Shown: positions 3,261-25,180, numbered from the stretch's first letter. The stretch is DNA of 64,000 nucleotides from Methanobacteriota archaeon (GCA_963769885.1 CAVYNH010000006.1:1-64000), one strand, 5' to 3'. The notes: generated by a model from the sequence alone, not told the origin. Translations and numbers: made by a program.

Positions 3261-3273
3261 AGAAATTTGTGTT

Positions 3274-3346
3274 GCTCCCGTGGTGTAGTGGCCAATCATA
3301 AAGCCCTCTCGAGGCTTTGACTCGGGTTCAAATCCCGACGGGAGCA
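3274..3346 (+). tRNA. tRNA-Glu(CTC); anchor of the cassette array
   Basis: Acceptor GCTCCCG/CGGGAGC-A, anticodon stem AAGCC-CTCTCGA-GGCTT, T-arm TCGGG-TTCAAAT-CCCGA. No encoded CCA. Confidence 0.95.
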
Positions 3347-3518
3347 TTCCGATAATTAGCACGATTAGAGTATTTTCTAGATCTTCTCCCATTAATATAC
3401 CTGCCAATTATTAGCGCGTAATGGGAGATTTTGATGCCTTTTAACGGTAAAGGAAGGGGGCACTGCTGAGGGTTTATAAAGCATAAAATGTTTTAAACTA
3501 GTGATTTGGGGATCATGT

Positions 3519-3944
3519 ATGAAAGCCATAATAAGACAAGTCGAAGGGTGTTCTTTTATTGGCAAAGCGGATAGTAACCATTGGATTAATATTGACGCAC
3601 CGAAAGAATCTTTTGGTTCGGATGCCGCTGCTCATCCAATGGAGTTAATATTGATTGCTCTTGGCTGTTGTTCTGGATGCGATGTCGTCTCGATTTTAAA
3701 GAAAAAACAAATACAATTAAAAGGATTTGAAATCCATGTTGACGCTGAGCGATCAGAAACTTATCCAAAGGTGTTTACAAAGATACATCTAGAATACGTG
3801 TTTTATAGCCAAAAGATTGACCCAATACATGTAGAACGGGCGATTGCATTATCACAGGAGAAATATTGTTCTGTATTTGCTATGTTGAAATCATCAGTAT
3901 CTATCACCACATCTTATAAGATAACGAATGAAGTAAGTAAATGA
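3519..3944 (+). CDS. OsmC/YhfA family protein (cassette 1)
   Basis: PMELILIALGCCSGCDV...AIALSQEKYCSVFAML. Confidence 0.85.
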   Translation: MKAIIRQVEGCSFIGKADSNHWINIDAPKESFGSDAAAHPMELILIALGCCSGCDVVSILKKKQIQLKGFEIHVDAERSETYPKVFTKIHLEYVFYSQKIDPIHVERAIALSQEKYCSVFAMLKSSVSITTSYKITNEVSK

Positions 3945-4049
3945 ACAACATTTTAACTCCGAAAATCAATTCTTAAAGACTTTTTTTGGTAATGCTTAAA
4001 TAAATTCCCCAATTGTAGTTCGAGATACCACAATCAAATTGAGGAGAGC

Positions 4050-6470
4050 ACGACGAAAAACAAAACCACATCCGACTATAAAACAATCTCCATTGAAGAA
4101 ACGATTGAACTACTGAAAACATCTATAAATGGACTAACGGAATCCGAGGCAAAACATCGCCTTGAAACATTTGGGTATAATAAGATAAAGGAAGAAAAAC
4201 GGCATCCTTTAATTGATTTTTTTTCCCGGTACTGGGGACCCATGCCCTGGCTATTAGAAATAGCAATCATTCTATCATATTTCCTCGATCATTATCTGGA
4301 AGCAGTAATCATTTTCATTTTACTCACGGTAAACGTCATCATTGGTTTTATCCATGCACACCATTCTCAAAAAGTCCTTGATTTATTAAAAAAACGATTA
4401 GCAGTCAAAGCAAAGCTACAGCGCGATGGAGCCTGGATAATAAAAAACGCACAGGAGATTGTCCCAGGCGATATCTTTGTACTGGAACTTGGGGACCTGG
4501 TGCCTGTTGATGCCAAGATCATAAAAGGAGAGATTTCTGTTGATCAATCAGCATTAACCGGCGAATCCTTACCCATTGATGCCCATCGGTCAGATATCAT
4601 CTACTCCAGTACTCTGGTAACACGAGGAGAAGCATTCTGCGTAGCGGTGAATACCGGGGTAAATACCTCATTTGGTCGAACCGCTGAGTTGCTACAAGCA
4701 GCCAAACCGAAATCCCATCAAGAAAAAATCATCATGACTATTACAAAATATATGATGTATTTCGGGATGGCGGCGTTGATCGCAGTTGCAATTTTTGCAT
4801 TGTTCGCAGGAATCACGTATATTTCGATTCTCACGTTCGTCGTGATCTTTCTTATGGGCGCGATTCCTGTGTCTCTTCCAGCGGTTATCACCATTGTCCA
4901 ATCCGTAGGTGCGATGGAACTTGCCAAGGAAGATGTGCTCGTAACGCGGCTTGATTCCATTGAGGATGCAGCGTCGATTGATGTGCTCTGTCTCGATAAA
5001 ACAGGTACCATTACCCAAAACAAACTATCGGTCACCGACATCATCCCATTTACAGGGTATACAAAAGAGGATGTTGCGCTGTTCGCGCGGTTAGCATCGC
5101 TCAAAGCAAGTAAAGAATTGATCGACACTGCGATCATCGATTATACAGTGTCTCTAGGATTTGATGTTACTCCTTATAAAAAGATCCATTTCACTCCATT
5201 CGACCCATCGATTAAAAGAACAGAGGCACTTATCGAGAAAGACAACAGACGCTTCACAGTAATGAAAGGATCACCACAAGTAATACTCAATCTGTGCAAA
5301 GAATTAGATGAAAAAAATCGAAAAAATGTTGATACCTCAATTGAAGACCTATCAAAGAAAGGATACAGGACGCTTGCGGTAGCCCGATCCACCGACGATA
5401 ACATAGACCACCTTCAGTTCTTAGGATTAGTCGCATTAGCTGACCCCATACGACCAGATTCCAGGAATATGATCGAAGCAGTAAAACAACTTGGAATCAA
5501 ACCTCTGATGTTGACTGGCGATAACATCAATATTGCCAAAGAAATTGCGCAGCAAGCATCGATTGGGAGTAAGATTATTCGCATGAATGATCTCAAAGAT
5601 TTAGGTGAAGAAGAGAAAATAAAAATTTGTGAAGAATATGACGGGTTCGCTGAAATATATCCAGAGGACAAATACAAGATTGTCACATTGCTACAATCAT
5701 GCGGTCATACGGTTGGCATGACAGGCGACGGAGTTAATGACGCGCCCGCGCTCAAACAGGCAGAGATGGGGATAGCAGTCAGCAATTCAACCGATGTCGC
5801 AAAAGGAGCAGCAAGCGTCGTGCTGGAAGAACCCGGACTTGGAGTAATCGCTGATGCAATACGGATAAGCAGGAAAACCTATCAACGAATGCTGACGTGG
5901 GTCATCAACAAAGTCACCAAAACAATTGAGTTTATCGTTCTATTGACGATAGGGTTCTTCTGGCTTCATAATCTTATCATCACGCTTTTAGGTATGGCAC
6001 TTCTCTTGGTCGCCAATGATTTTGCAACAATATCACTGGCAACCGATAATGTGAAAGACACACGTACTCCAGACACATGGAACATCAAGAATATTACCTT
6101 AGCCTCACTTGTTATAGCTATATTGTTAGTGATTCAAGGCGCAATCACTATATATCTGGGGGAAACCTATTTCAATCTGATTTGGGTGCAACTGACGACG
6201 TTTGTCACTTTGACGCTCGTTTTTCATAGTTTGTTGAGAGTGTCTATCGTGCGAGAACGGAGACATTTCTGGTCTTCACGACCTGGAAACGGATTAATGA
6301 TTTCAATCGTAGTAACCATTACAGCATTCACATTATTGGGCATCTATGGTGTTATTATGCCACCGATTACTCTTGGCCAAGTGGTCTTTACGTTAGGATT
6401 CTCAGCGCTCTTCATCTTCGTCTTTGTAGATCCAATAAAATATTGGGCATTTAAAAAATTCTGCTTATAA
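4050..6470 (+). CDS. Plasma-membrane proton-efflux P-type ATPase (P3A-like) (cassette 1)
   Basis: TGES, DKTGT and GDGVNDAPALK motifs. The frame stays open upstream of ATG 4242 and encodes the Cation_ATPase_N segment GLTESEAKHRLETFGYN. Probable start is ACG at 4050 after GAGGAG. Confidence 0.9.
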   Translation, partial: TTKNKTTSDYKTISIEETIELLKTSINGLTESEAKHRLETFGYNKIKEEKRHPLIDFFSRYWGPMPWLLEIAIILSYFLDHYLEAVIIFILLTVNVIIGFIHAHHSQKVLDLLKKRLAVKAKLQRDGAWIIKNAQEIVPGDIFVLELGDLVPVDAKIIKGEISVDQSALTGESLPIDAHRSDIIYSSTLVTRGEAFCVAVNTGVNTSFGRTAELLQAAKPKSHQEKIIMTITKYMMYFGMAALIAVAIFALFAGITYISILTFVVIFLMGAIPVSLPAVITIVQSVGAMELAKEDVLVTRLDSIEDAASIDVLCLDKTGTITQNKLSVTDIIPFTGYTKEDVALFARLASLKASKELIDTAIIDYTVSLGFDVTPYKKIHFTPFDPSIKRTEALIEKDNRRFTVMKGSPQVILNLCKELDEKNRKNVDTSIEDLSKKGYRTLAVARSTDDNIDHLQFLGLVALADPIRPDSRNMIEAVKQLGIKPLMLTGDNINIAKEIAQQASIGSKIIRMNDLKDLGEEEKIKICEEYDGFAEIYPEDKYKIVTLLQSCGHTVGMTGDGVNDAPALKQAEMGIAVSNSTDVAKGAASVVLEEPGLGVIADAIRISRKTYQRMLTWVINKVTKTIEFIVLLTIGFFWLHNLIITLLGMALLLVANDFATISLATDNVKDTRTPDTWNIKNITLASLVIAILLVIQGAITIYLGETYFNLIWVQLTTFVTLTLVFHSLLRVSIVRERRHFWSSRPGNGLMISIVVTITAFTLLGIYGVIMPPITLGQVVFTLGFSALFIFVFVDPIKYWAFKKFCL

Positions 6471-6546
6471 AAAGTAGCCGATTTATTCGGAGGGCCTATT
6501 TATTCAACTCAAGTCATGTATTGAGGGATTTATAGCCGTGAGTCTT

Positions 6547-6562
6547 AAATCCCGAGGGAGCA
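6547..6562 (+). repeat. att-like repeat R1 (tRNA-Glu 3' end, 1-nt deletion)
   Basis: AAATCCCGA-GGGAGCA; the downstream ~36 nt also resemble the sequence after the tRNA. Confidence 0.85.
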
Positions 6563-6746
6563 TGCCAATAATTAGCATGGTTTGAGTATCTTCTACATTT
6601 CCCCGGTTCTGAAAGACTGTGATCGACAAACTTGATGGTATTATCGGAGATGTTGACATTTTGATTATTGTAAATACTATAGGGTGCATGTAAAAGAAAA
6701 TTAAATATTCTCCTATAACATTCTCATAATAAGATTTTTCAGGCTT

Positions 6747-7703
6747 ATGAAAAAAATAGCAATATTAACACGAGATTGCGCGGGTGTAAACGCAGCCATA
6801 CGAGCCGTGGTACGAACAGCATGCGGGTACCGCATCGAAGTCATTGGGGTGTTAAAAGGCTACGATGGTTTGATTGATGGGAATTTCATTACACTCAACC
6901 GTGGTTCAGTGTCAGGGATTATTAATTTAGGGGGAACGATCCTTAAAACTTCTCGCTCGAAGAGATTTATCACTGATGCAGGTCAAAAACAAGCAGTCAA
7001 CAACATCAAGGAACAGAAAATAGAAGGAATCATTGTAATCGGGGGGAATGGCTCTTTAACAGGTGCGCACATCCTTGCAACGAAATATGGAATCCCTGTT
7101 GTTGGTATCCCAGCGACAATTGATAATGATATCACTGGTGTTGACCTATCGATTGGTGCCGATACCGCGGTCAATGTTGCGTTAGACGCGGTAGATAAAA
7201 TCCGGGACACTGCAACGAGTTTGGAACGAATTTTCATTGTAGAAGTTATGGGTCATGAAAGCGGCTACATAGCTATGCAGGTTGCTTTAGCTGGAGGCTG
7301 TGAGGAAGTATTGCTTCCTGAAAAAGAATTCACTATCGAATCGATGTGCACAGAGATACAACAAGGGAATGCGAAAGGAAAATCAAGCTGGATTATTATT
7401 GTTGCCGAGGGAAGGGCTAAGGCTCATGATGTCGCTCGTTTTATTACCCAAAAAACAAAACTTGAGACGAGGGTTGCTGTGTTAGGACACATTCAGCGGG
7501 GAGGACATCCAACCGCTGTTGATAGAATTCTTGCGTCTCAGCTTGGAAACCAAGCGGTTGAGGTTTTACGAAACGGTCAAACTGATCTTTGTGTGAGTTT
7601 GAAAAATGATAAATTAATCACCATTCCTCTGTCCGTGGTATTTCAGCCGAAAAAAATCGATGTATCAGAGACCTATAAATTGATAAAACTTCTTACAAAG
7701 TAA
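6747..7703 (+). CDS. pfkA: ATP-dependent 6-phosphofructokinase (cassette 2)
   Basis: GGTILKTSR, GGNGS, PATIDNDI, EVMG, LGHIQRGG. Confidence 0.9.
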   Translation: MKKIAILTRDCAGVNAAIRAVVRTACGYRIEVIGVLKGYDGLIDGNFITLNRGSVSGIINLGGTILKTSRSKRFITDAGQKQAVNNIKEQKIEGIIVIGGNGSLTGAHILATKYGIPVVGIPATIDNDITGVDLSIGADTAVNVALDAVDKIRDTATSLERIFIVEVMGHESGYIAMQVALAGGCEEVLLPEKEFTIESMCTEIQQGNAKGKSSWIIIVAEGRAKAHDVARFITQKTKLETRVAVLGHIQRGGHPTAVDRILASQLGNQAVEVLRNGQTDLCVSLKNDKLITIPLSVVFQPKKIDVSETYKLIKLLTK

Positions 7704-7776
7704 GAAAAATTTGATTCTATACGAAATTGTATTTATGTAAACGTCCATAATCTGAATTGAAAACGAGGAACATAGA

Positions 7777-9930
7777 ATGCCAAGTATTAAGAGTCCATTA
7801 TCGGAGATTCCTGAGAGAATTTCCGGTCTTTCAGAATTAGCGTATAACTCCTGGTGGAGTTGGCATCCGGAAGCACGAATGTTGTTCAAAATGATTGATA
7901 GAGCTTCATGGAAATTAAGTGTTCACAATCCTGTTAAAATGCTGCTTTCTATCGATAATACCATATTGAAGAATATGGTGAAAGACCAAAAGTTTTTACG
8001 GCAATATGATGCGGTTATTGCGCGCTTTCATGAAGAGATGAAAACAAACACAGGCTGGTTTCTTGAAAATATTACACGGCGGGATGATTTGTCACTTGCG
8101 TTTTTTTCTGCGGAATATGGTCTTCATCATTCCCTTCCACTTTATGCGGGAGGGCTTGGGTTTCTCGCTGGAGATCTGCTCAAAGAAAGTAGCGACCTTG
8201 GAATCCCTGTCGTTGCTGTAGGATTTATGTATCCCGAAGGGTACGTTCAACAACGAATCAGCTCCGACGGATGGCAACAAGACGATAATGAGCCTATCGA
8301 TAGAGAATCTGCTCCCATCACCCGTGTATATGATACGAAAGGAAAATATCGGGTAATCAGAGTTCCTTTTTTTGAGCCTGCTCTCAACGTGGGATTCTGG
8401 AAGGTTCAGGTGGGTCGTGTTGAACTCTATCTCATGGACACCGATATCAGTGAGAACGATCCATGGAACCGAGGAATCACCTCGCATTTGTACATCGGTA
8501 GCCCTGAACAACGCCTTCGTCAGGAAATTGTCCTTGGCATCGGTGGCGCTGAAGTACTTCGACAAATGGGAAAGAGGCATTCAGTGCTTCATTTAAATGA
8601 AGGACATACCGTGTTTGCTATCTTAGAACGAATCCGTGAGAAAGTTACAACTGGCATGAGTTTCAATGAAGCATTCGAACAGACACGCCAAACAACGATT
8701 TTTACCACACATACACCAGTTCCCGCAGGAAACGATATTATTCCGTTCTCTCTTGTAGAAAAGTATTTTTCAGGGTATTGGCCTGCCCTTGGTTTAGATC
8801 GAGGTTCTTTTCTCGCATTAGGTATTGACCCAAAGGATCCAAACGCAGGATTCAATATGACTGCTTTTGGGTTAAAAGGATCACGCTACCATAATGGCGT
8901 CAGTACACGCCATGGGGTCGTAGCTCGAAAGATGTGGCATTCGTTGTGGCCAGAGGTACCAGAACAAAAGGTCCCTATTGATTCAATTACCAATGGAATC
9001 CATGTTCCGACATGGATCGAACCAAAAATGCAGCTCCTTTTCGATAAATATCTTGGGCCAGATTGGATCTCAAAGCATGAGGACCCTGAGATTTGGAGGC
9101 ATATTGACGATATACCAGACGAGGAACTCTGGCAGACCCATTATTGGCTTAAAACAAAATTGGTGATACGCATCATGGATCGCGCGCGTCAGCGGATGGA
9201 TGAACACCCAGACCCAAAGATTATTCTCGCATCAGGTGTGTTACTAGACCCGAATGTGTTGACTATTGGTTTTGCCCGCAGATTTGCGACCTATAAACGA
9301 GCGACCTTGATTTTCCAGGATATCCAACGTCTTCAAAACATTATAAATAATCGTTGGAAACCTATTCAAATCATTTTCGCAGGAAAAGCACATCCAGCGG
9401 ATGACCAAGGTAAACGACTCATACAACAGGTGTTCAACATTGCAAAAGATGCTGCCTTTGGTGGACGAATTGCATTTGTTGAAGATTACGACGAAAACTT
9501 AGCCCAATATTTAACCCATGGTGTTGATGTTTGGTTGAATAATCCTCAACCTCCCTACGAGGCATGTGGGACGAGCGGGATGAAAGCCTCATTGAATGGC
9601 GTTCCGAATCTGAGTATTCTTGATGGGTGGTGGATTGAGGGATATAACGGTAAAAACGGATGGTCATTTGGGGATAAAGAGGGAAATCGAAGCGATAGCG
9701 AAGATGCGTCTGCTATCTATGAACTCCTTGAAAAAAGAGTCATTCCACTGTACTACGATGTTGATGATGATGGCTTTCCTGATAAATGGGTTAAATTAAT
9801 GAAGGAAACGATAAAAAGCACTGCAGCACCCTTTAGCTCACGCAGAATGATGAAAGAATATGCCATAAAATTTTACCAGCCTGCGTTACAATTTGCCTCC
9901 GACATTCAAGTAGATAAAAAAAACACTTAA
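7777..9930 (+). CDS. glgP: Alpha-glucan (glycogen/maltodextrin) phosphorylase (cassette 2)
   Basis: YAGGLGFLAGD, HLNEGH, FARRFATYKR and the PLP-lysine motif EACGTSGMK. Confidence 0.95.
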   Translation: MPSIKSPLSEIPERISGLSELAYNSWWSWHPEARMLFKMIDRASWKLSVHNPVKMLLSIDNTILKNMVKDQKFLRQYDAVIARFHEEMKTNTGWFLENITRRDDLSLAFFSAEYGLHHSLPLYAGGLGFLAGDLLKESSDLGIPVVAVGFMYPEGYVQQRISSDGWQQDDNEPIDRESAPITRVYDTKGKYRVIRVPFFEPALNVGFWKVQVGRVELYLMDTDISENDPWNRGITSHLYIGSPEQRLRQEIVLGIGGAEVLRQMGKRHSVLHLNEGHTVFAILERIREKVTTGMSFNEAFEQTRQTTIFTTHTPVPAGNDIIPFSLVEKYFSGYWPALGLDRGSFLALGIDPKDPNAGFNMTAFGLKGSRYHNGVSTRHGVVARKMWHSLWPEVPEQKVPIDSITNGIHVPTWIEPKMQLLFDKYLGPDWISKHEDPEIWRHIDDIPDEELWQTHYWLKTKLVIRIMDRARQRMDEHPDPKIILASGVLLDPNVLTIGFARRFATYKRATLIFQDIQRLQNIINNRWKPIQIIFAGKAHPADDQGKRLIQQVFNIAKDAAFGGRIAFVEDYDENLAQYLTHGVDVWLNNPQPPYEACGTSGMKASLNGVPNLSILDGWWIEGYNGKNGWSFGDKEGNRSDSEDASAIYELLEKRVIPLYYDVDDDGFPDKWVKLMKETIKSTAAPFSSRRMMKEYAIKFYQPALQFASDIQVDKKNT

Positions 9931-9941
9931 GACATCGTTTA

Positions 9942-11414
9942 TTATTCCGCTCCGATAGTTAGGATTCCAAAGGAGTCCGTTCCACCTGGTTTTTTCGAAA
10001 ATCTTCGCTGAGTGAGTATCACCTTATCATTCTTTTTAACGAGATCCGTATTATTAATAAAGTTAAGGAGAGGAACATGCCAACTCCGAGTTTTGTTAGC
10101 CATAAAAAAAGGATACACTCCGTAAGAGAGATTAAGAAACCGGCACGTGCTTTTTTGTCTACTAAACGCTAATATCCAGCATTCTGGTTTAAATCGTGAA
10201 ATACGCCGAGCGGTATTTCCACTTGTAGTCGGGGTGAGAATATACCTTACTTGTAAGGTCTCTGCAGCTTCTACAACGTTTAGTGAAATAATGTCTGTTA
10301 CGCTACGATGATCATCGCTTACGGTACGTCTCAGTACACCCTGAAGATCACATGATGACGGAGCAGCTCTCCGTTTTTGTTCCGTTGCTTTCGCGATTCT
10401 TCTCATCATCTGAACGGTCTCAATAGGATATTTTCCGATTGCGGTTTCTTCAGAGAGCATGACCGCATCAGTACCGTCAAGAATAGCGTTTGCGACATCT
10501 GCGACTTCCGCTCGTGTTGGACGACTGTTTTCCTTCATCGACTCTAACATTTGTGTCGCAGTAATGACTGGACAACCAACGAGATTGGCTTTGTTGATAA
10601 GTTTTTTCTGCACAGAGGGAACGTCTTCTAAGGGTATTTCAAGCCCTAGGTCCCCACGAGCAATCATAACAGCATCTGAGACAAAGAGGATCTGTTCAAA
10701 ATTTTTTACAGCATCTTTTCGTTCGATTTTCGCTATCGCATATATTGTCTTTCCTTTTTTCTGAGCATATTCTTTTACTTGGAGGATATCATGTGCATTT
10801 TTAATAAACGATACTCCGAATGTGTCAACTCCTTCTTTTAACCCGAAATCAATAAATTCAAGGTCTTTTTGTGTTACCGCATCTAGGAATAAGTTAGCTC
10901 CTGGCAGATTGACTCCTTTCGATGAGTACAATGCTCCACCGGTAAGTACCTTGCATCGAACCTCTTCGTTTACAATAGCTTGTACTTTTAATTGAATAAA
11001 TCCATCGTTAAAATAAATTGTCTGTCCTTTGGAGATACTTTTTAGTAACTGATTGTATTTGATTGGAATAAGCGTATCCGTCCCTTGAACATCTTGTGAC
11101 GTGAGTGTAATTTGTGTATTTTTCTTAAGGACGATAGGTTCAGATTCTAACGTCCCTATTCTGATTTTTGAACCAGGAAGATCGATAAGTATCGTAATTG
11201 TTTTTTCTAAGTCCGCAGCTGTTTTTTTAATCTGTCGAATATCCTTTCTATGGTCAGTAGAAGTACCAAAAGAAAAATTGAGTCGAGCGACATTCATTCC
11301 ATTCATTATTAATTCTTCTAAAATTTCAGGAGATCGAGATGCAGGACCGATAGTACAAACAATTTTTGTTTTATGACAAGGCAATCTTATTTTTCGATGG
11401 ATTTGTTTGTTCAT
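9942..11414 (-). CDS. pyk: Pyruvate kinase (cassette 2)
   Basis: KTKIVCTIGPAS, IAKIE, MIARGDLG, ATQMLESM, RPTRAEVADVANA. Confidence 0.95.
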   Translation of the reverse strand: MNKQIHRKIRLPCHKTKIVCTIGPASRSPEILEELIMNGMNVARLNFSFGTSTDHRKDIRQIKKTAADLEKTITILIDLPGSKIRIGTLESEPIVLKKNTQITLTSQDVQGTDTLIPIKYNQLLKSISKGQTIYFNDGFIQLKVQAIVNEEVRCKVLTGGALYSSKGVNLPGANLFLDAVTQKDLEFIDFGLKEGVDTFGVSFIKNAHDILQVKEYAQKKGKTIYAIAKIERKDAVKNFEQILFVSDAVMIARGDLGLEIPLEDVPSVQKKLINKANLVGCPVITATQMLESMKENSRPTRAEVADVANAILDGTDAVMLSEETAIGKYPIETVQMMRRIAKATEQKRRAAPSSCDLQGVLRRTVSDDHRSVTDIISLNVVEAAETLQVRYILTPTTSGNTARRISRFKPECWILAFSRQKSTCRFLNLSYGVYPFFMANKTRSWHVPLLNFINNTDLVKKNDKVILTQRRFSKKPGGTDSFGILTIGAE

Positions 11415-11593
11415 GTAATTCACTATTTTTTAAGAATTGGCAGGTATTCGTCGCTTAAATATTATGTCCTTGTGATCCAATAGATGATGAAATAGGGGCT
11501 GCGCCCATATAATCCTGTTCTGCCTTCGTTTCTGGGTAAAATTTTTCCATTCAGTCGATTCAAATTGTTTGTATCCAATCTGGAACTCTTCGT

Positions 11594-11949
11594 ATGGATA
11601 TGGGGTATCCGGTTCTTAATGAGAACGGAAATCTTGTCAGCATCCTTACCCATCATGATATTTATAATTCGATTTTAGAGGATAAGTACGATCTTAAGTC
11701 AAAGACGTCGAATCCAAGGATTTACTACTTACATATCCAAATGAATCCCTGGAGGAAACCATTAATAGGATGGTGAAAAAAGATGTCAGTCATGTTCCCG
11801 TGGTTGATCCATCTAATCCGACTCACCTTATTGGTTTAATTACAAAGGGAGATATCTTGAAAGCCCATCATAAAAAACGAGTGATAGATGCAATGCGTAT
11901 CCATTTCACACTGCGTAATATTTTACCTAAAAATTGGAAAAAGGAATGA
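11594..11949 (+). pseudogene. Truncated, frameshifted CBS-pair fragment (resembles the C-terminus of a ClC/CBS protein)
   Basis: GYPVLNENGNLVSILTHHDI, frameshift at ~11697, then VKDVESKDLLLTYPNESLEETINRMVKKDVSHVPVVD...LIGLITKGDILKA. No N-terminus. Confidence 0.7.
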
Positions 11950-12002
11950 ATATTGATCTTCTTCCTTTTACAGAAAAAAGGGGATTTATACTCGTGAGCG
12001 CC

Positions 12003-12019
12003 AAATCCCGACGGGAGCA
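12003..12019 (+). repeat. att-like repeat R2
   Basis: AAATCCCGACGGGAGCA, 17/17 identical to tRNA-Glu 3330-3346. Confidence 0.95.
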
Positions 12020-12128
12020 TTTTTTATATATTTATGACGTCACCATTTTAGGGTGAGTTTTAAATCATCTATACAAATTACTTTGCAATACAAAGTATTA
12101 TATACTACAAACTACATATCAGTATATA

Positions 12129-12779
12129 GTGAAAAGAATGACAGAACCAATGAATTTAAAAGAAATCGAAAAAAAAGCATACCGTTTTACATTTACAGAC
12201 GGAATCTATGACCTAACCTATGCCACCTTGCTCATCATGATTGCCCTTGCGCCCATCCTCAGAGAACTCATCGGACTCGGCTACATATTGTTCCTTGTTA
12301 TCCCCGCACCACTTCTCTTACTCCTGGGAATACGATACATCTCCGTTCCACGCATCGGCCTTGTCAAATTTAATCAACACCGAAAGACAACACAAAAAAA
12401 AATAGCAATAATCTGCATCATACTCTTACCACTCACTGTTATACTCGTGCTTCTTACCGCCGCACAAATCTTCCCGGGATCCTACGGAACTCTCCTGGGA
12501 GTATATACCGTACCAATCGGAGGAGCACTCTTTGCTATCGCACTCCTGAGTCTTATCGCCTACTTCATCGAGTTTTCGCACCTCTACGCATACGGGCTTG
12601 CAATCGGTTTAGGCATTCTCATCTCGGAACTTCTCTACGATCCTGTTGCTCCTCCATGGAACAGCGTGATTGCTTTCGGAATCTCAGGCACCCTGTTGTT
12701 TATCTACGGCATCATTGAACTTGTGCGATTCATCCGGACATATCCCCTACCAAAAGAGGAGAACAGTATTGTCAACTAA
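12129..12779 (+). CDS. Multi-pass membrane protein (cassette 3)
   Basis: About 6-7 hydrophobic segments; N-terminal EKKAYR...DGIYD. Confidence 0.75.
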   Translation: MKRMTEPMNLKEIEKKAYRFTFTDGIYDLTYATLLIMIALAPILRELIGLGYILFLVIPAPLLLLLGIRYISVPRIGLVKFNQHRKTTQKKIAIICIILLPLTVILVLLTAAQIFPGSYGTLLGVYTVPIGGALFAIALLSLIAYFIEFSHLYAYGLAIGLGILISELLYDPVAPPWNSVIAFGISGTLLFIYGIIELVRFIRTYPLPKEENSIVN

Positions 12780-13101
12780 AAAAAAGAAAACAATGGAAAA
12801 CAGACAACCGCTGGATTTCATCGATAAAATCATCCATGAACCAGCACGACTCAACATCATGGCTTACTTATATGTTATTGACAGCGCGGATTTCCTATTT
12901 CTCATGCGACAGACAGGACTTACCTTTGGCAACCTCTCCGCGCATATGAGCAAGCTTGAAGATGCAGGATACATACAGATAAAAAAAGAGTTCCTCGGGA
13001 AAAAACCACATACGATGCTCAGCCTCACAAAAAAAGGTCGAACAACTTTTGAAGAATATCGAAATAATATGAAACAGTTTTTTAACGATTTACCCACCTA
13101 A
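12769..13101 (+). CDS. Winged-HTH transcriptional regulator (MarR/ArsR-like) (cassette 3)
   Basis: IIHEPARLNIM...LTFGNLSAHMSKLEDAGYI...LTKKGR. Start is TTG 12769 (after GAGGAG) or ATG 12793. Confidence 0.85.
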   Translation: MSTKKKKTMENRQPLDFIDKIIHEPARLNIMAYLYVIDSADFLFLMRQTGLTFGNLSAHMSKLEDAGYIQIKKEFLGKKPHTMLSLTKKGRTTFEEYRNNMKQFFNDLPT

Positions 13102-13173
13102 CATCCAATTCATCAAAAAAATCTACTCCCCAAAGCTCAAATATGCAGGAGCATTACACTTTAAACATATATG

Positions 13174-13186
13174 CCCGACGGGAGCA
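13174..13186 (+). repeat. att-like repeat R3
   Basis: CCCGACGGGAGCA, 13/13. Confidence 0.9.
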
Positions 13187-13241
13187 TGCTAATTTTTATC
13201 ATGAGTAAAATTTTTATACAATTGAATACATTTTGTATACA

Positions 13242-13805
13242 ATGCTTGAGCGGCTCTTCACTTCCAAGACTCGCGTGAAAATCTTAACCCTTTTCATTCT
13301 TAATCCCGATCGAGAACTTCATGTACGGGAAATCGCCAGACTCACCAAAGAAAATATCAACGCTATCCGGCGGGAATTGACCAACCTTGAAGAAACAGGA
13401 CTGCTGAAAAGCTCACGAAAAGGAAACATGAAACAATATACGCTCAATAAGGAAATGCCCCTCTATGAAGAACTTGCCTCCATGGTGTTAAAAACCGAGG
13501 GCGTGGCAAAGATACTCAAAGAACATCTTGACGACCTTGGCTCCATACAGACCGCGTTCATCTACGGCTCTTTTGCACGCCACAACGCACAACTCTCAAG
13601 CGACATTGACGTCTTCATCATCGGAACCATCAGCGAAAAAACATTAATCTCAGCACTTCATGACCTCGAAAAACAACTCTCCAGGGAAATCAACTACATT
13701 CTCTTCACCCCAGAGGAATTCACCTCGCGAAAGAGAAATAAGGATCCCTTTGTCGTCAACGTCCTCAAAGAACCTAAAGTGATGCTCCAAGGCGATCTCC
13801 CTTGA
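13242..13805 (+). CDS. HTH plus minimal nucleotidyltransferase (MNT) protein (cassette 4)
   Basis: N-terminal wHTH (LHVREIARLT); IYGSFAR...SDIDVFII gives the GS-x10-DxD motif. Confidence 0.9.
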   Translation: MLERLFTSKTRVKILTLFILNPDRELHVREIARLTKENINAIRRELTNLEETGLLKSSRKGNMKQYTLNKEMPLYEELASMVLKTEGVAKILKEHLDDLGSIQTAFIYGSFARHNAQLSSDIDVFIIGTISEKTLISALHDLEKQLSREINYILFTPEEFTSRKRNKDPFVVNVLKEPKVMLQGDLP

Positions 13806-14221
13806 CGCTCGACCAGCTGGAACGACAAGGGTACATCAAAAGACTCCCTATTGATACCAAAAAGATTAGGGACACACTAGCTCTGGCACAACGAGATATT
13901 GTGACCGCAAAAACCCTGCTTCATCAAGATGCGGATTGGACATTCTCTATTGCGTACAATGCTATCTTACAGACCTTGCGGGCATTTATGTTTTCACAAG
14001 GCTACCGACCGGATGGCAGCAATCAACACGTCTCAACGGTCCGCTTTGCTGAACTATTCCTAGATAAAGACGTAGTAATCGTATTTGATAGAATGAGACG
14101 GAAACGACATATTTCCGTGTATGACACCGCTGGGTCCATCTCTAGAACCGAGGCGAAAACTGCGATTCAAACGGCAGAGGAAATCTTCCAAGAGATTAAG
14201 CAACGAATACACGAAAAATGA
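13802..14221 (+). CDS. HEPN domain protein (cassette 4)
   Basis: AYNAIL...GYRP...H...RRKRHISVY; overlaps the MNT gene by 4 nt. Confidence 0.85.
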   Translation: MTLDQLERQGYIKRLPIDTKKIRDTLALAQRDIVTAKTLLHQDADWTFSIAYNAILQTLRAFMFSQGYRPDGSNQHVSTVRFAELFLDKDVVIVFDRMRRKRHISVYDTAGSISRTEAKTAIQTAEEIFQEIKQRIHEK

Positions 14222-14229
14222 ATGCACTC

Positions 14230-14242
14230 CCCGACGGGAGCA
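14230..14242 (+). repeat. att-like repeat R4
   Basis: CCCGACGGGAGCA, 8 nt after the HEPN stop codon. Confidence 0.9.
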
Positions 14243-14401
14243 TTTTTTTACTGTCTACAGGAGAAAAATCATCGATTTTTCGAATCCTCACAGGGGCTCT
14301 ATTGCCAGAGGTTCAAAGCCCCCTATGGGTATTTTTACCCTTATTTTTTTGTACTAAAAAAGATTTAAATAACAAACGAGCTTTATTTTTCATAAGGAGG
14401 A

Positions 14402-15439
14402 ATGACTTTGATTAGGAAAGGACTGACGGTTATAATTATTCTTATAACCCTTGGGACTTGTATCATTCCATCCATCGCACAAGATACTGAGAAACCACTA
14501 CCAACATCAAAAGGTGATTGGTTATATGTTGGTGGCAGTGGACCAGGGAATTATACAAACATACAGAATGCCGTTGACAATGCATCTAGTGGTGATACGA
14601 TATTTGTCTATAGCGGGGTGTATACCTATTTCAAACCAGGTAATCGAGGATGCATCGACATTCAACAAAAAAATATTACATTAATAGGTCAAGACAAGGA
14701 TACAACCATCTTGGATGGCAATTGGTCAAACGGAATCGTTCATGTTGATAGCCCGATCTTTAGCATATCTGGTTTTACTGTGAGGAATAGCGGCTCATCG
14801 CACGGCCCAGGTTGGTTTGGCATCGAAATAGGTTTTAATTATAACGAAGAAACAACGATACACGATAATATCATCTGTGGAGGTCACAATGATGGCATCA
14901 TAGTCTGGGGAGGCAAATGTTCCGTGTACAATAATACAATTTTTGGTAATGCCGGGGCAATATACATGAGTACCGGCAATGGTGAGATTTTTAATAATAA
15001 AATCTCGGAAAATACCTATGGCATACATGTACTAGGATACAGCTTCGTTCATGACAATATCATACAAAATAATACTGTTGGAATATTCGTTGAGGGATCA
15101 AGTAAAGTTGAACGTAATCAAATTGAGCAAAACGATGTAGGTGTACAAACGGGAAATTCTAAAGCGAAAATTCAGAAGAACAATTTCGTTGATAATGAGA
15201 TCCAAGCCCAATATTCCAACCTCTTGGTTTTTATTAATCTGTTTTTACCGTTACCCTACCGATTCAATTGGAGAGGCAATTACTGGAATGACTGGACGTC
15301 ACCTCTTCCAAGACCAATCAAGGGATATTGGTCGTATCTATTTTTGCCTACCTTCGAAATCATTGGATCATTCCCCTCAGTTCAATTCGATTTATTGCCC
15401 TCGACTACACCGTATGACATCAAACTAACGTCAGTCTGA
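14402..15439 (+). CDS. Secreted right-handed beta-helix (NosD/CASH-like) protein (cassette 5)
   Basis: Signal peptide, WLYVGGSGPGNYTNIQNAVDNA, Asn-ladder repeats, NYW. Confidence 0.85.
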   Translation: MTLIRKGLTVIIILITLGTCIIPSIAQDTEKPLPTSKGDWLYVGGSGPGNYTNIQNAVDNASSGDTIFVYSGVYTYFKPGNRGCIDIQQKNITLIGQDKDTTILDGNWSNGIVHVDSPIFSISGFTVRNSGSSHGPGWFGIEIGFNYNEETTIHDNIICGGHNDGIIVWGGKCSVYNNTIFGNAGAIYMSTGNGEIFNNKISENTYGIHVLGYSFVHDNIIQNNTVGIFVEGSSKVERNQIEQNDVGVQTGNSKAKIQKNNFVDNEIQAQYSNLLVFINLFLPLPYRFNWRGNYWNDWTSPLPRPIKGYWSYLFLPTFEIIGSFPSVQFDLLPSTTPYDIKLTSV

Positions 15440-15538
15440 AAAAGGTAAGTATTGAATATCTCGTAACGAATCCCTTTGGGAGATTTTCTGCCAAACCTTC
15501 ACTTCCTCTCGCCTGGGGGCACTGAAGTATTGGCACAT

Positions 15539-15554
15539 AATCCCGACGGAAGCA
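15539..15554 (+). repeat. att-like repeat R5
   Basis: AATCCCGACGGAAGCA, 15/16. Confidence 0.9.
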
Positions 15555-15756
15555 TTGATACAGATCCTAAAAAAGATCTTGCTTTCCTCTTTTTAATTTG
15601 TCTAATAAGTATTTTTTCGTAAAAATACTGTTGTCTCGTCCAAAAAATGAAAGCATACCTTTAATTCACCATTGATAGTAAAAGATATGTAGGGTCATTC
15701 ATATTGAACTCACGTAATTCTTTATCTGGAAAAAATTCTTGGTTTGCAAGGAAACC

Positions 15757-17307
15757 ATGAAAAAAATCAAAGTCATCGTACTCATCGTCCTCCTTCTCTG
15801 CGTCGGTGTTTCAGGATGCATTAACCAGGCAGGGAATGACAATCAAAAAAAAAGAGAGTTACTTACCATTGGAATATCAGAAGATCCTCAAGGATTTTTT
15901 CCTTGGATTTACAGTTACGATACCTGTACGTTAGGAATAAATTTCAATATCTTCAGCCCCTTGGTCGAGTTTGATAATAGTTTTAGACTGTTTCCGAAGC
16001 TTGCAAAATCATGGAATAACCCTGATAATTGCACCTGGCGGTTTTTCCTACGACAGGACGTCAAGTTCCACAACGGGTATAATTTTACTGCGAATGACGT
16101 GAAATACACTCTCGATCTCATAAAAGACAATAGAAGTAATATACTCCGGGACTTGATTACAGAGATTAAGGAAGTCTCTGTAGTAGATAATTATACAGTC
16201 GACGTCAAGACGTTTCAGCCGTTCCCCATCCTCTTAAACAAATTGACTAATATCCCAATTGCCTCCAAAAAATATCAGGAAGAAACCCTGGAAAAATGGC
16301 CAATCGGGACCGGGGCCTATAAACTGGAAGAGTACGTTCCAAAGGATCACATCACCTTGGAAAAATTCGATGGCTATTCGATGGGACATCCGACGATACA
16401 AAAAGTCGTTTTCAAAGTAATTCCAGATAGCAAAGCATTGAAAGAAGCGTTTCTCGCAAAAGAACTTGACATCATGGAGCATGTGCTTCCCGCCGATGTG
16501 AAAGAAATATCCAACACTTCAGGACTGAGTGTAAAGAAGTTCTCAAGTCCAACCGTGTGGTATATAGGATTTGATTTCAGGGAAAACAACAGTAGTGCAT
16601 TCCCTGAGAGGAAGAATCCGTTAGCTGACGTGCGCGTCAGGGAAGCGATGTATCACGCGATTGATATCAATGCAATTCTCGGCTTGTTAGAATCGTCAGC
16701 AGAATCTGCCTCCCAGTTTTTATCACCCTTGATTTTTGGATATAACCCTGAAATCAAACGGTTATCATACGATTTGAATCTCTCCCGGCAACTTCTCCAG
16801 GAGGCAGGGTATGAAAACGGTTTTAATTTAACATTGGATTGCCAACAGGAGTATCCACTGCAAATCCAGATTTGCGGGGAAATAGTACGGCAACTTTCAC
16901 AGATCCTTACTGTTCATTTCAATCCTCTTCCCTCTGACCAATATTATATGAAGCTATATTCGAGGAATTGTTCCATTTATTTTATTGGCTGGATACCGGC
17001 GACCGGTGATGGCGGTGAAATATTTGATTATCTCCTGCGCTCCAAACATGATCCACTCGGGGTAGGATCGTATAATTTCGGATATTATTCGAACCAAACC
17101 GTCGATCAAATAACCCAGGAAGTCGCCCATACCATGAACCAGAAAACACGGAAGCTTCTGATGCGAGAGGGATTCAAGGTCGCCATGGATGATGTGGCCT
17201 GCATTCCCCTCTATATCAGCGTCTGTAATGTTGGCGTCGCCGATTATATCGACTGGACTCCAAGAGCGGATCTCATGACGCTTGTCGAAGAAATTATTGT
17301 TAAATAA
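15757..17307 (+). CDS. Family 5 (oligopeptide/nickel-type) solute-binding lipoprotein (cassette 6)
   Basis: Lipobox-like VSGC, LRQDVKFHNG, PIGTGAYKL, VREAMYHAID. Confidence 0.9.
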   Translation: MKKIKVIVLIVLLLCVGVSGCINQAGNDNQKKRELLTIGISEDPQGFFPWIYSYDTCTLGINFNIFSPLVEFDNSFRLFPKLAKSWNNPDNCTWRFFLRQDVKFHNGYNFTANDVKYTLDLIKDNRSNILRDLITEIKEVSVVDNYTVDVKTFQPFPILLNKLTNIPIASKKYQEETLEKWPIGTGAYKLEEYVPKDHITLEKFDGYSMGHPTIQKVVFKVIPDSKALKEAFLAKELDIMEHVLPADVKEISNTSGLSVKKFSSPTVWYIGFDFRENNSSAFPERKNPLADVRVREAMYHAIDINAILGLLESSAESASQFLSPLIFGYNPEIKRLSYDLNLSRQLLQEAGYENGFNLTLDCQQEYPLQIQICGEIVRQLSQILTVHFNPLPSDQYYMKLYSRNCSIYFIGWIPATGDGGEIFDYLLRSKHDPLGVGSYNFGYYSNQTVDQITQEVAHTMNQKTRKLLMREGFKVAMDDVACIPLYISVCNVGVADYIDWTPRADLMTLVEEIIVK

Positions 17308-17325
17308 CGGAGGCGAGATACATCG

Positions 17326-18969
17326 TTGTTGGCAAAACAAGTAATGAAGAAATTCCACAGCGTGAAACTCAAGGTCATCCTGCCCCTCTTGGTTATTCTT
17401 CTAGCAGTATTTCTCATTAGTTCATTGGTCATTATTGAACGGGAATCAAAGGCAGCGAAAGACACTATCATTAGCACTGCTGAGTCTTTCTCCAGCTTAT
17501 CTGTGGTCTATGTGATTGACAATTATCAGCTGTATTATGATTCTGGTTTTTATAAATTCATTGAAGTCATCGATGGTTTAATGAAACTGAACGCCAACCT
17601 CATCGAAACACAAATCGTCGATGTGAACGGGAAAATTCTCTTCGACTACACGGAGATACAGGAAGGAAAATACAATGAACAGACAAACGGGGAACGATTC
17701 CTCGAAAATGCAACATTGATACAAAGAGCCGGCGACCCGACCTCTTCTCTTATTCTCAATGAAACCACACGACGTATTGACATCATCCAGCCGTATTTCG
17801 ATGAAACGGGGAGACATGACTATTCCGTGAGATATGTTTTTTCGCTTTCTCGTCTGGATGCAATGACACACGAGATGATTATTACCATATTGATGTATTC
17901 TGGCGTCTTCATTGTCGTGTCTTTCCTCCTGATTTATTTCCTTTTTAATTACTTCATTTCAGCTCCGATCGGGGAGTTGACCAAAGGCGTTCGTACGATG
18001 AGCACCGGAACGCTAGGACATAAGGTGAACATCACATCAAAGGATGAAATCGGTGAGTTGGCAACCGCATTCAATACGATGAGCGCCGATCTCAAGCTTT
18101 CCAGAGACAATTTGGAGGAGTACAGCAAAAATCTGGAAAAACTCGTGGCTGAACGTACAAAAGAATTAGAAGAAAAAACGAATCGTCTTCAGCAAATCAA
18201 TCAAGATTTACTGGTCGCACGAGAAGAGCTCAACGTATTGAATAAGAATCTCGAGGAACGAGTAATAGAACGAACAAAAGAAGTGGAGAAATTACTCAAG
18301 CAAAAAGATGAGTTCATCACCCAACTGGGTCACGATCTGAAAAATCCTCTAGGTCCCCTGATCAATCTACTTCCACTCCTTGAAGAACAAGAAGCGGATG
18401 CTGCAAAAAAAGAGATGTTGACTGTTCTGCATCGGAATGCCGATTACATGAGAAATCTCGTTGTCAAAACACTCGAACTTGCGGTGTTAAATTCTCCGAA
18501 TACGAAGTTTTCCATTGAAAGGATGAACCTATATACAGAAGTCAGCCAAATCATTGAACATAAAAAGATTCTGTTCGATGTAAAACAAGTAAAAATTTCT
18601 AACAATATCGATCATGCGTTGTTCGTAAAAGCAGACCGATTACGACTTGAAGAGCTGCTGACAAACATCTTTGAAAATTCTGTGAAATACTGCAAAGAGG
18701 AGTGCAAGATTATCATCGATGCAGAACAGACAAATGACCTCGCCAAAATCTCTATCGCAGATAAGGGCATCGGGATGACCAAAGAAGAAATCGAACGCAT
18801 CTTTGACGAGTTCTACAAAGCCGATTCTGCGCGTCATGACATTCAGAGTACTGGACTAGGAATGTCGATTTGTAAACGAATTGTTGAGAAACATGGGGGT
18901 AGTATTTGGGTGGAAAGCAAGGGTCCTGGCAAGGGCACAACCGTGTTCTTCACCTTACCAGCAGCATAA
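17326..18969 (+). CDS. Membrane sensor histidine kinase with HAMP domain (cassette 6)
   Basis: Two TM segments, HAMP (DEIGELATAFNTM), H-box GHDLKNPL, N/G1/F/G2 boxes. Confidence 0.92.
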   Translation: MLAKQVMKKFHSVKLKVILPLLVILLAVFLISSLVIIERESKAAKDTIISTAESFSSLSVVYVIDNYQLYYDSGFYKFIEVIDGLMKLNANLIETQIVDVNGKILFDYTEIQEGKYNEQTNGERFLENATLIQRAGDPTSSLILNETTRRIDIIQPYFDETGRHDYSVRYVFSLSRLDAMTHEMIITILMYSGVFIVVSFLLIYFLFNYFISAPIGELTKGVRTMSTGTLGHKVNITSKDEIGELATAFNTMSADLKLSRDNLEEYSKNLEKLVAERTKELEEKTNRLQQINQDLLVAREELNVLNKNLEERVIERTKEVEKLLKQKDEFITQLGHDLKNPLGPLINLLPLLEEQEADAAKKEMLTVLHRNADYMRNLVVKTLELAVLNSPNTKFSIERMNLYTEVSQIIEHKKILFDVKQVKISNNIDHALFVKADRLRLEELLTNIFENSVKYCKEECKIIIDAEQTNDLAKISIADKGIGMTKEEIERIFDEFYKADSARHDIQSTGLGMSICKRIVEKHGGSIWVESKGPGKGTTVFFTLPAA

Positions 18970-19094
18970 CTGCCTTAAGACGGAGAAAAAGAGACTGGAT
19001 TTCTCATTGTCATCAACAGAAATATTTCATTGAGTTCACCTACAGAAATAAATATTAAAGACGTCCAAGATATATCTGTAGAGGCAGAGAAATC

Positions 19095-19481
19095 ATGAAA
19101 AAAATCATGTTAGTCGATGATGAAAAGGATCAGATATTTTTCATTAAAACTTCTTTTAAGAATTTATTTGGAAAAGATTATATGATTGTCCCTGCCGAGA
19201 GCGGCGAAAAATGCTTTGAACTATTAAATAAGCAAGAGATCCCTGATCTAATACTTTTGGATATCATGATGCCAAAGATGAACGGATGGGAGGTGTTCGA
19301 CCGGCTACGCGCGAATCCCTTGTGGAAGGATATTCCGATTATCTTTCTGACTGCGCGAACCGATGAATTTGCTGAGCATGCAGGAGTGCTCATCGCCGAA
19401 GATTACATTAAGAAACCAATTGAAATTAAAGAGTTAAAGATCCGTATCGATAATGTGTTAAAAAAGTCGAAGAAGAAATAG
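19095..19481 (+). CDS. Single-domain response regulator (cassette 6)
   Basis: LVDD, LLDIMMPKMNG, FLTA, KP. Confidence 0.92.
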   Translation: MKKIMLVDDEKDQIFFIKTSFKNLFGKDYMIVPAESGEKCFELLNKQEIPDLILLDIMMPKMNGWEVFDRLRANPLWKDIPIIFLTARTDEFAEHAGVLIAEDYIKKPIEIKELKIRIDNVLKKSKKK

Positions 19482-19535
19482 CACAAACATGTTCTCCCAT
19501 ATTTCTCCTTTACTCTATGGTTTTTTGTAAAACGA

Positions 19536-20507: not shown

Positions 20508-20759
20508 AAAAAATCATCGTTTATTGAGCTATTAAATTTTTCCAATTTTTTTTCCTATTACTACTATCATTCCGGATGGTAGGTGGAGCGAAGCCGGAAA
20601 TGATGATTTTATGAAAATTGGACAAATCCACAATCACCTCGTAATTTATTTTCTTTTTGAGCAAATTTCTTGGATATAGTCTTTAGTAATGCATCATCGC
20701 TGTTTTTTCATGAGGCAAACCAATGGAAAATGCTGTTCCATACATAGGAAGGTAAGAAT

Positions 20760-22133: not shown

Positions 22134-22253
22134 ATTCGTATTCCTTTTCATCGAAAATATCATCGGGGGATGCTTACCGCTCGTGAGCGAACTTCGTAGC
22201 GGATTTCATACCAGACAGTAACTTCCTCCTGGGGGTTTGAACCCTTTACATGT

Positions 22254-22269
22254 AATCCCGACGGGAGCA
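22254..22269 (+). repeat. att-like repeat R6
   Basis: AATCCCGACGGGAGCA, 16/16. Confidence 0.95.
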
Positions 22270-22421
22270 TTGTTTCACTGTCTTCAGGAGAAAAAAAGGT
22301 CACTTTTCGCATCCCCTTTTGAGCATTTATGCCAGAGACTCAAATCCATTCCCTTGCATATTTTTATATACATGATTCATGTTACTTGCCATGTATTAGC
22401 ATAGCATAAAGAGGCGGATTA

Positions 22422-23318: not shown

Positions 23319-23331
23319 ACTATTGGCACGT

Positions 23332-23350
23332 ATTCCCGACGGGAACACCA
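23332..23350 (+). repeat. att-like repeat R7, followed by CCA
   Basis: ATTCCCGACGGGAACA-CCA. Confidence 0.85.
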
Positions 23351-23407
23351 TTGGGGCATTGAATCTCGAGTGATAGTCCCTGGTAGGGGAATTGAAAGGA
23401 AGGCTTT

Positions 23408-25039: not shown

Positions 25040-25180
25040 CGTCGATCACCAGTGACAAAGCATGGACAATAACTATATAATTACTTGTTTGGGAACTGAA
25101 CCTTTGGCCCATATTTCCTTCAGGGGATTTTTGCAAAAATATTCTTCCACGCTCCTGGCGAAAGTGAACCCTCGGTAGGC

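Follow-up and report, generated by a model that had tools for sequence, protein, structure and literature searches.

How can two neighbouring gene cassettes share both of their non-coding ends and yet carry entirely unrelated genes? This question is raised by a 64,000-nucleotide stretch of a Methanobacteriota archaeon (GCA_963769885.1, CAVYNH010000006.1:1-64000), which corresponds to contig C6:1-64000 and is called the window below. The two cassettes lie one behind the other at 3347-12019, directly downstream of a tRNA-Glu(CTC) gene. The genome has a size of 2.09 Mb, a G+C content of 55% and a completeness of 92%, and its relatives are deposited as metagenome-assembled genomes (MAGs) of uncultured Thermoplasmata or Thermoplasmatota. 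In our labels, G stands for a genome of the order (118 were compared), L for a metagenome locus and C for a contig. An earlier note on this DNA regarded the conserved ends around exchangeable cargo as the sign of a mobile vector family. Our analysis favours, with a probability of about 0.65, the reading that both cassettes are non-autonomous units similar to cis-mobilizable elements (CIMEs), which would head an accretion array at tRNA-Glu(CTC) built by site-specific recombination with an integrase acting in trans. The mobile family with conserved ends is retained from the note, but the arms would be the P and P′ halves of an attachment (att) site on the tRNA-Glu 3′ end and not the ends of a "vector".

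The tRNA-Glu(CTC) gene (3273-3347, plus strand; aragorn; Rfam RF00005, 60.2 bits) is intact and would be the anchor, in att terms the attB, of the array. Its last 13 nt, CCCGACGGGAGCA (3334-3346, plus strand), comprise the 3′ strand of the T-stem, the 3′ strand of the acceptor stem and the discriminator. This core is repeated in direct orientation at 6551-6562 (with one C fewer), 12007-12019, 13174-13186, 14230-14242, 15542-15554, 22257-22269, 23335-23347 and 25184-25196, which makes nine direct copies when the tRNA's own (copy 0) is included. With a 17-nt core pattern and up to three mismatches, 8 matches were obtained against 0.31 expected, and none of 100 shuffles reached 8; downstream of 25196 no further core copy was found in the window. 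We treat the stretch from one core to the next as a unit. As in tRNA islands, direct repeats of the tRNA 3′ part flank the units, the tRNA is regenerated, the composition is foreign (~40% versus 55% G+C; 35-45% over 3347-23400) and the presence of the units varies among relatives. What the cassettes of the window lack is a tyrosine integrase of their own beside the att site: in a PF00589 scan all eight matches of the genome lay outside the window, and none was in the array. Att sites kept at both ends, with integration and transfer genes absent, are the features of a CIME.

Cassette 1 opens with a left arm, X(A) (3347-3382), carries the genes for an OsmC-like protein (3501-3944; PF02566, E 1.5e-18) and a type IIIA proton-efflux P-type ATPase (4242-6470; TIGR01647, 679 bits against a cut-off of 615; Pfam E1-E2_ATPase), and closes with a right arm, Y(A), of sequence GGGATTTATAGCCGTGAGTCTTAAAT (6525-6550) and core copy R1 (6551-6562), all on the plus strand. 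Cassette 2 opens with its own X(A) (6563-6598, plus strand) and carries the genes for an ATP-dependent 6-phosphofructokinase (pfk, 6747-7703, plus strand), an alpha-glucan (maltodextrin/glycogen) phosphorylase (glgP, 7777-9930, plus strand) and pyruvate kinase (pyk, 9942-11423, minus strand); it ends with Y(A), here GGGATTTATACTCGTGAGCGCCAAAT (11981-12006, plus strand), and core copy R2 (12007-12019, plus strand), which is identical to the tRNA end. The arm sequences lie where the earlier note had placed them and the two cargoes are unrelated, as it had said. Its list for cassette 2 was right but incomplete, since a frameshifted remnant of a CBS-domain gene (11594-11949, plus strand) lies between pyk and the right arm, in two short overlapping frames that both match the CBS domain. 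Repeat R1 is present too, but its core carries a 1-nt deletion (CCCGA-GGGAGCA). The AAATCCC that closes both right arms is T-loop/T-stem sequence derived from the tRNA and hence is not specific to the arms.

The two left arms are identical at 29 of 36 positions without gaps, and the best of 300,000 pairs of random 36-mers drawn from the array reached 24. The right arms agree at 17 of 23 positions (6525-6547 versus 11981-12003; permutation p ~2.5e-5), share the motif GGGATTTATA..CGTGAG....AAAT, and both run on into AAAT and the core. One possible interpretation of such similarity is that a single ancestral unit had its ends duplicated on the spot and gave rise to cassettes 1 and 2, and the two left arms, 81% identical, are indeed closer to each other than to other X(A) members. 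However, the cassettes have no similarity outside the arms, and the R1 junction is built like the canonical Y(A)-core junctions of more than 100 unrelated loci. Parts of the cargo also occur with a right arm elsewhere: the OsmC gene stands alone in L095 (80% nucleotide and 76% protein identity), 118 nt upstream of a Y(A) site of its own, and in L110 the 5′ end of pyk lies ~250 nt before Y(A), as in the window. A local duplication, to which we give next to no chance, is contradicted by where else the arms occur, and in this the note, which saw conserved cis ends around exchangeable cargo and no tandem duplication, was right.

Y(A) together with the core forms a site of ~44 nt with the consensus GGGATTTATACCCGTGRGTGCYAAAT-CCCGACRGGAGCA. 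The pattern of the arm and the start of the core was found in 23 of the 118 genomes of the order, belonging to 10 genera, and the reversed pattern used as a control gave one match. Among 185,579 species genomes the exact IUPAC pattern occurs at 18 places, 16 of them in Thermoplasmatota or Thermoplasmata MAGs and the other two evident chance matches in bacteria; in metagenomes it was found in 102 stretches. The possibility that the arms exist only here, which the note had held against its own proposal, is thereby removed. A scan of IMG/VR viral contigs for the right arm gave no match, and a free viral or plasmid attP form was not found there. Across ~100 distinct copies the conservation starts abruptly at GGGA and ends after GGAGCAT, with unconserved flanks on either side, and the site is near-intact across genera of 28-55% G+C. 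Because the site is kept while its flanks are unconserved, we argue that it has remained under selection.

The Y(A) motif is invariably followed by the acceptor end of tRNA-Glu, C[A/G]GGAGCA, and the variable base of the acceptor stem agrees with the tRNA that anchors the array: it is G in the array of the window and A at tRNA-Glu(TTC) arrays, the A being found on contig C2 of the same genome and in G113, L087, L146 and L156. Judging from these patterns, Y(A) with its core appears to be dedicated to the two tRNA-Glu isoacceptor genes. Arrays of Y(A) units right behind tRNA-Glu are present in other genera as well (G113, L087 with three units, and G115); in G113, tRNA-Gln and tRNA-Glu(TTC) are followed by four units of 2.4, 2.5, 0.65 and 1.8 kb. 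The G088 "chromosome" was excluded from the structural comparison, as it is scaffolded with gaps of 100 N where these repeats lie. We also observed, in the genome of the window, a Y(A)-like arm joined to a tRNA-Arg-type core (AAATCCCGACAGGTCCGC; C4:139752-139790, plus strand), and the type of arm is therefore not strictly tied to tRNA-Glu. This site is inverted relative to the tRNA-Arg(ccg) gene (C4:133466-133541, minus strand) 6 kb away, an integrase gene lies at 132044-133396, and an inversion may have taken place near this tRNA gene.

Y(A) contains an outer 8-bp inverted repeat, GGGATTTA/TAAATCCC, which is conserved in the ~100 copies and gives a DNA fold of ~-6 kcal/mol. This could point to a true integron-like system, in which the right arm would be a single-stranded attC-like hairpin (GGGATTT-N15-AAATCCC) used by an integron-type integrase. 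The position of the site at the cassette 3′ end is like that of attC, and the nearest NCBIfam model of the integrase described below is "XerA / integron integrase", though the match is below the cut-off. However, covariation of the inner stem was absent over 101 copies (m8-m13 is a C-A mismatch in 35, C-G in 38 and T-A in 12), and the hairpin idea was rejected on this ground. The 3′ half of the outer stem is moreover the T-loop/T-stem of the tRNA; for these two reasons we read the repeat as probable inverted binding sites for a protein in a double-stranded attP, rather than as an attC-like fold. The identity with the tRNA 3′ end is a hallmark of ordinary double-strand att recombination. In addition, cargo lies on both strands with its own upstream regions, some units have no hairpin, and no attI/Pc-type platform gene stands beside the array. 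We thus consider an integron-type system very unlikely.

The same hairpin, the acceptor-like end and the left arms, which are T-rich like trailers or terminators, might alternatively mean that the right arm works in the transcript, as a terminator, a tRNA-like processing signal or a small RNA, and is no recombination site. Against this, no Rfam family was matched besides two tRNAs, and a tRNA-like minihelix would need the 5′ acceptor strand, which is lacking. The orientation of the arms is set by the tRNA, while cargo genes lie on either strand, as seen with pyk in the window, the CAAX protease gene on C2 and all three open reading frames (ORFs) in L077. On C2 the arm is accordingly found upstream of where the minus-strand cargo starts, and in the window it follows the divergent pyk; in such positions a role in the transcript is hardly credible.

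The left arm is recognisable as a family at other loci, as the note had expected, but it is no fixed partner of Y(A). In the genome of the window the strict X(A) pattern occurs at three places only, behind both tRNA-Glu genes and at R1, with a few weak matches elsewhere; a looser family, TGCTAWTWATTRACAYGGTTA..., was seen by inspection behind Y(A)-core junctions of G053, of G015 and of numerous metagenome loci. The third unit of the genome that has both arms is on contig C2 (13936-15018) at tRNA-Glu(TTC) (13859-13935), and it reads tRNA-Glu(TTC), X(A), CAAX-protease gene (minus strand), Y(A) and a core ending at 15018. Among the ~46 complete units that end in Y(A), ~13 start with an X(A)-like arm and ~24 with a T-rich arm, X(B) (...TTTTTTCTCCTGTTGGAAAC...); these counts were read by eye from the same listing for which the automatic classifier, which is crude and undercounts X(A), gave 5 and 19, respectively. 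With these counts, and as the same cargo also occurs under other arms, the pairing of the two arms as one "vector" did not survive. The CTCCTG motif of X(B) is found as well at the borders of tRNA-Pro, Arg, Met and Leu arrays in this genome. Upon insertion of a unit at the tRNA, its left arm would become the new 3′ trailer of the tRNA, and this role may be why few T-rich left-arm families recur at many tRNAs. A derivation of X(A) from the arm next to the integrase was considered and rejected, as the sequences differ.

Which enzyme could act on this site? No tyrosine recombinase was found among the larger ORFs of the bounded Y(A) units, which encode permeases, redox proteins, radical SAM enzymes, Fic, peptidases, beta-helix proteins and an IS240 transposase, and PF00589 was not among the families matched by at least three of 140 ORFs (250-520 aa) around Y(A) junctions. 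When the Y(A) loci were searched by phmmer with the integrases of the genome, only two were found, in L109 and L114, and the ratio of cargo-only units to autonomous elements is ~50:1. Both integrases belong to a ~410-aa family with Phage_int_SAM (SAM-like N-terminal) and Phage_integrase domains and a C-terminal zinc ribbon; its nearest NCBIfam model, the archaeal "XerA / integron integrase", scores 121 bits against a cut-off of 220. Integrases of this family begin ~40-50 nt behind tRNA-Glu(TTC) in the sister species (G015:C22), behind tRNA-Glu(CTC) in L114, behind a Y(A)-core junction in L109 and behind a Glu core in G062:C2. In a maximum-likelihood tree the Glu-linked integrases fall into two clades with good support (99/99 and 100/99), and the members linked to Thr, Phe and His lie outside them. 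Adjacency and phylogeny point to the ~410-aa Xer-like zinc-ribbon tyrosine integrase as the most likely enzyme of the Glu site. As to whether any member carries an integrase, the cassettes do not, but integrase-bearing elements of this same family on the same tRNA-Glu core do.

In L114 (Ga0315277_10097386, 827-2267) we observed tRNA-Glu(CTC), the integrase gene and then an inverted, degenerate Y(A)-core, which means either that two convergent arrays meet here or that an inversion took place between cores. The single ~410-aa member in the genome of the window (166693-167940) heads a 13-kb tRNA-His element (C7:166566-179481), which lies between perfect 15-nt copies of the tRNA end and has a right arm with an inverted GGGAT...ATCCC. 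The tRNA-His elements alone gave both ends (this genome, G028 and G019), and the arms there carry short inverted motifs around the core and are not Y(A). The other common integrase family of the order (~430 aa, 67 of 118 genomes) was considered as the Glu enzyme and rejected: among 30 fetched loci, 26 hold a tRNA gene, always for Pro, Met, Val, Ile or Ala, four show no tRNA gene, and none has a tRNA-Glu gene or a Glu core.

From these features we propose the following mechanism. The left arm X, which follows a core, and the right arm Y, which precedes the next one, would be the P′ and P halves of an attP-type site, and in a circular form of the unit they would be joined as Y-core-X. A tyrosine integrase would recombine this site with the tRNA 3′ end or with any of the core copies that the array already contains, and each insertion would regenerate the tRNA and push older units outward. 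Y(A) and the core would be the conserved and specific part, the left arm coming from a few interchangeable families (X(A), X(B)), while the enzyme would be supplied by rarer autonomous elements on the same core, so that the cassettes are probably mobilised in trans. The four bases before CCCGA vary with the type of right arm (AAAT, TATG, ACTC, TAAT, TATT or CAAT) and the left arm starts right after GCA, suggesting that the exchange point is inside the 13-nt core.

Several observations weigh against this mechanism. At E<=1e-20 a Glu-type integrase was not found in the genome of the window, which is 92% complete, and the array as it now stands is therefore a static record of captures made in the past. 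One of the core copies, R1, is damaged. The MNT-HEPN unit and some others have no Y(A)-type arm at all, so that a unit can reside in the array without Y(A). X(B), the commoner partner of Y(A), has the CTCCTG of arrays at other tRNAs, including tRNA-Pro(tgg), a site of the other integrase family, and for this reason more than one enzyme may be involved. The left arms beside the integrases (..TTAAATGCCCC / ..CTTAAAAGCCCC) are unlike X(A). The right end of the Glu-, Thr- and Phe-linked integrase elements in relatives was not recovered, as the contigs end too early, and G062:C2 shows no second core within 41 kb.

The behaviour of single units among relatives bears on whether they moved as such. 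Bounded Y(A) cassettes range from 86 bp to 8.5 kb, and their cargo is varied (ArsP, DsbD, radical SAM, UbiA, Fic, C25 peptidase, NosD, CAAX protease). Three loci, L146, L127 and L135, have the MNT-HEPN unit (13174-14242) conserved over its whole core-to-core length, and L098 has it from the left core up to where the contig ends, with 75-78% nucleotide and 74-83% protein identity; elsewhere it stands after a Y(A) unit and before other units, has the local A-type core, and both neighbours differ. The pfk-glgP-pyk block recurs in L106 (Ga0209777_10008686, 4880-9965), where it is 88% identical over 4.7 kb (90%, 90% and 88% amino-acid identity for pfk, glgP and pyk, respectively). There it is inverted relative to the neighbouring Y(A)-core and lies beside a tRNA-Leu-like 3′ half, and the homology includes neither arm. 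A tRNA-Leu tail inside a Glu-type array was also observed in G015:C23. Such arrangements suggest that units pass from the array of one tRNA to that of another, taking old cores with them. In the sister species G015 (91% complete assembly), the tRNA flank is 85% identical with different units behind the tRNA, and the cargo of cassettes 1-4 is absent from the assembly.

These data also bear on the possibility that each unit is the leftover of a separate, once-autonomous element, never mobile as a small cassette and never acted on in trans. Loss of the integrase after integration, as well as tandem integration, is documented for archaeal elements (PMC8371274). On C4 a degenerate Y(A)-type site has the fragment of a decayed integrase ~0.85 kb away, and the damaged R1 core and the decaying arms of a distal aldehyde dehydrogenase unit in G015 and L087 would fit with such decay. 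On the other hand, nearly all of the more than 100 Y(A) junctions have no adjacent integrase, units can be as small as 0.65-2.5 kb with four in a run, the 44-nt site has stayed near-intact between unconserved sequences, and the MNT-HEPN unit keeps exactly its core-to-core extent in different neighbourhoods. We therefore consider decay alone unlikely and prefer CIME-like units moved by an enzyme in trans.

The aldehyde dehydrogenase unit gives a further hint at the history of the array. In the window (23348-25196) it closes the tRNA-Glu(CTC) array and ends in a B-type arm. In relatives (G015:C23, G113:C17, L087 and L156) it is the most distal unit of tRNA-Glu arrays; the arrays that contain it or close with it have a core of the tRNA-Glu(TTC) type, and in G113 and L087 they stand directly behind this tRNA. 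Its end is an intact Y(A) in L156 and a decayed Y(A) in G015 and L087. That this gene is native flanking sequence was considered and rejected, since a Y arm and a core bound it in the relatives L156, G015 and L087. Its presence at TTC-type arrays elsewhere and at the CTC array here suggests that the two tRNA-Glu arrays once exchanged material through the core they share, which would amount to a rearrangement of the chromosome. A wider reading is possible, although we put it at less than even odds: the system may be a tRNA-anchored analogue of integrons, in which a pool of small cassettes would have the ~44-nt site as their own, be excised as circles and be re-inserted at either tRNA-Glu gene by a visiting Xer-like zinc-ribbon integrase, and modules would be traded between genera. 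The cassettes would then bear promoters, the traded modules would include pfk-glgP-pyk, OsmC with the proton pump, and toxin-antitoxin pairs, and the chromosome, too, could be rearranged when the two tRNA-Glu arrays recombine with each other.

The remainder of the array (12020-25196, plus strand) consists of six units, closed by the core copies at 13174, 14230, 15542, 22257, 23335 and 25184. Unit 3 carries a membrane protein and an HTH_34 regulator, unit 4 is the MNT-HEPN unit, and units 5 and 7 each carry NosD. Unit 6 encodes a substrate-binding protein (SBP), a histidine kinase, a response regulator, AsnC and a C25 peptidase, and unit 8 is the aldehyde dehydrogenase unit.

Direct arrays of tRNA 3′ ends were also observed at other tRNA genes of the genome, namely tRNA-Pro(cgg) (C1:42299-46221), Leu(caa) (C4:197715-200111, minus strand), Arg(gcg) (C7:72962-88962, minus strand), Met (C6:598436-599869, minus strand) and Ser(gct) (C4:358567-360471, minus strand). 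The genome-wide search with every tRNA tail (up to two mismatches) was noisy, and local clusters alone were used. An arm motif, CTACAGGAGAAAA / TTCTCCTGTTG, is common to many of these Pro, Leu, Arg, Met and Ser arrays. Genes for a ~335-aa Xer-like recombinase are present in two copies of 83% nucleotide identity (C6:676482-677504 and C4:123922-124917), and a third of this type is a fragment (C4:109010-109135); all three lie within islands of ~30-38% G+C, and this recombinase is multi-copy and element-borne. Aragorn also reported a 91-nt tRNA with a four-base anticodon (gtag; C6:618985-619075, minus strand), which may be a misread intron-containing tRNA.

If the cassettes were moved in trans, they would make up a gene-capture platform of sediment archaea that works like an integron and is built from ordinary tRNA-att recombination. 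This would account for the entry of low-G+C metabolic and stress modules into a genome of 55% G+C, an example being the glycogen-to-pyruvate block, which has its 88% identical counterpart in another metagenome. The defined 44-nt site and the candidate integrase could perhaps serve as a tool for site-specific insertion in archaea. Taken alone, our result is one more family, new and well documented, of a mechanism that was already known.

Among known systems, the closest comparison is with the CIMEs related to ICESt1/ICESt3 of streptococci, which keep att sites, have no recombination genes, accrete site-specifically and are moved by the integrase of a related element (PMC5704250). Here, too, attL and attR are kept without recombination or transfer genes, the units are stacked in tandem at the 3′ end of the target gene, and movement would be expected only with the integrase of a related autonomous element. 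In contrast to CIMEs, the present units have an archaeal host, a tRNA-Glu target, no conjugation context and combinatorial arms. At 0.1-8.5 kb they are also much shorter than the autonomous elements, which they greatly outnumber. Archaeal plasmids and viruses of the pNOB8 type, which have non-suicidal tyrosine integrases and are found integrated in tandem at tRNA genes, are likewise flanked by direct repeats of the tRNA 3′ end and regenerate the tRNA; unlike them, the units described here are cargo-only, with no replication, virion or integrase genes. A split integrase of the SSV type is not indicated, as the PF00589 scan of the genome revealed no integrase-like fragments at the cassette ends and the quoted arms contain stop codons. 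In the review of archaeal tyrosine recombinases that describes tandem integration at tRNA genes and integrase loss (PMC8371274), we did not identify the Xer-like zinc-ribbon family of uncultured Thermoplasmatota.

The tycheposons of Prochlorococcus form islands by successive integrations, with partial tRNAs between the units (bioRxiv 10.1101/2020.12.28.424599). They are similar in their adaptive metabolic cargo and in the degenerated units deeper in the island, whereas they are bacterial and have their own tyrosine recombinase and often replication modules, neither of which is present in cassettes 1 and 2; nearly all units of the present kind are devoid of hallmark genes. With integrons and clusters of attC sites lacking integrases (CALINs), the array shares its polarity, its small cassettes of varied cargo, a conserved site at each 3′ end, and an enzyme encoded elsewhere or at the head of the array, as with the integrase beside tRNA-Glu(TTC) in the sister species. 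In contrast, the site here is a tRNA 3′ end plus an arm and not attC, with no supported folded-strand structure, there is no platform of IntI, attI and Pc at the array head, and the cassettes lie in both orientations with their own upstream regions. The array therefore represents a known mechanism of island building, and what is particular to it are units that are compact and carry cargo only, the large excess of such units over autonomous elements, the well-defined 44-nt Glu-specific site and the mix-and-match arms.

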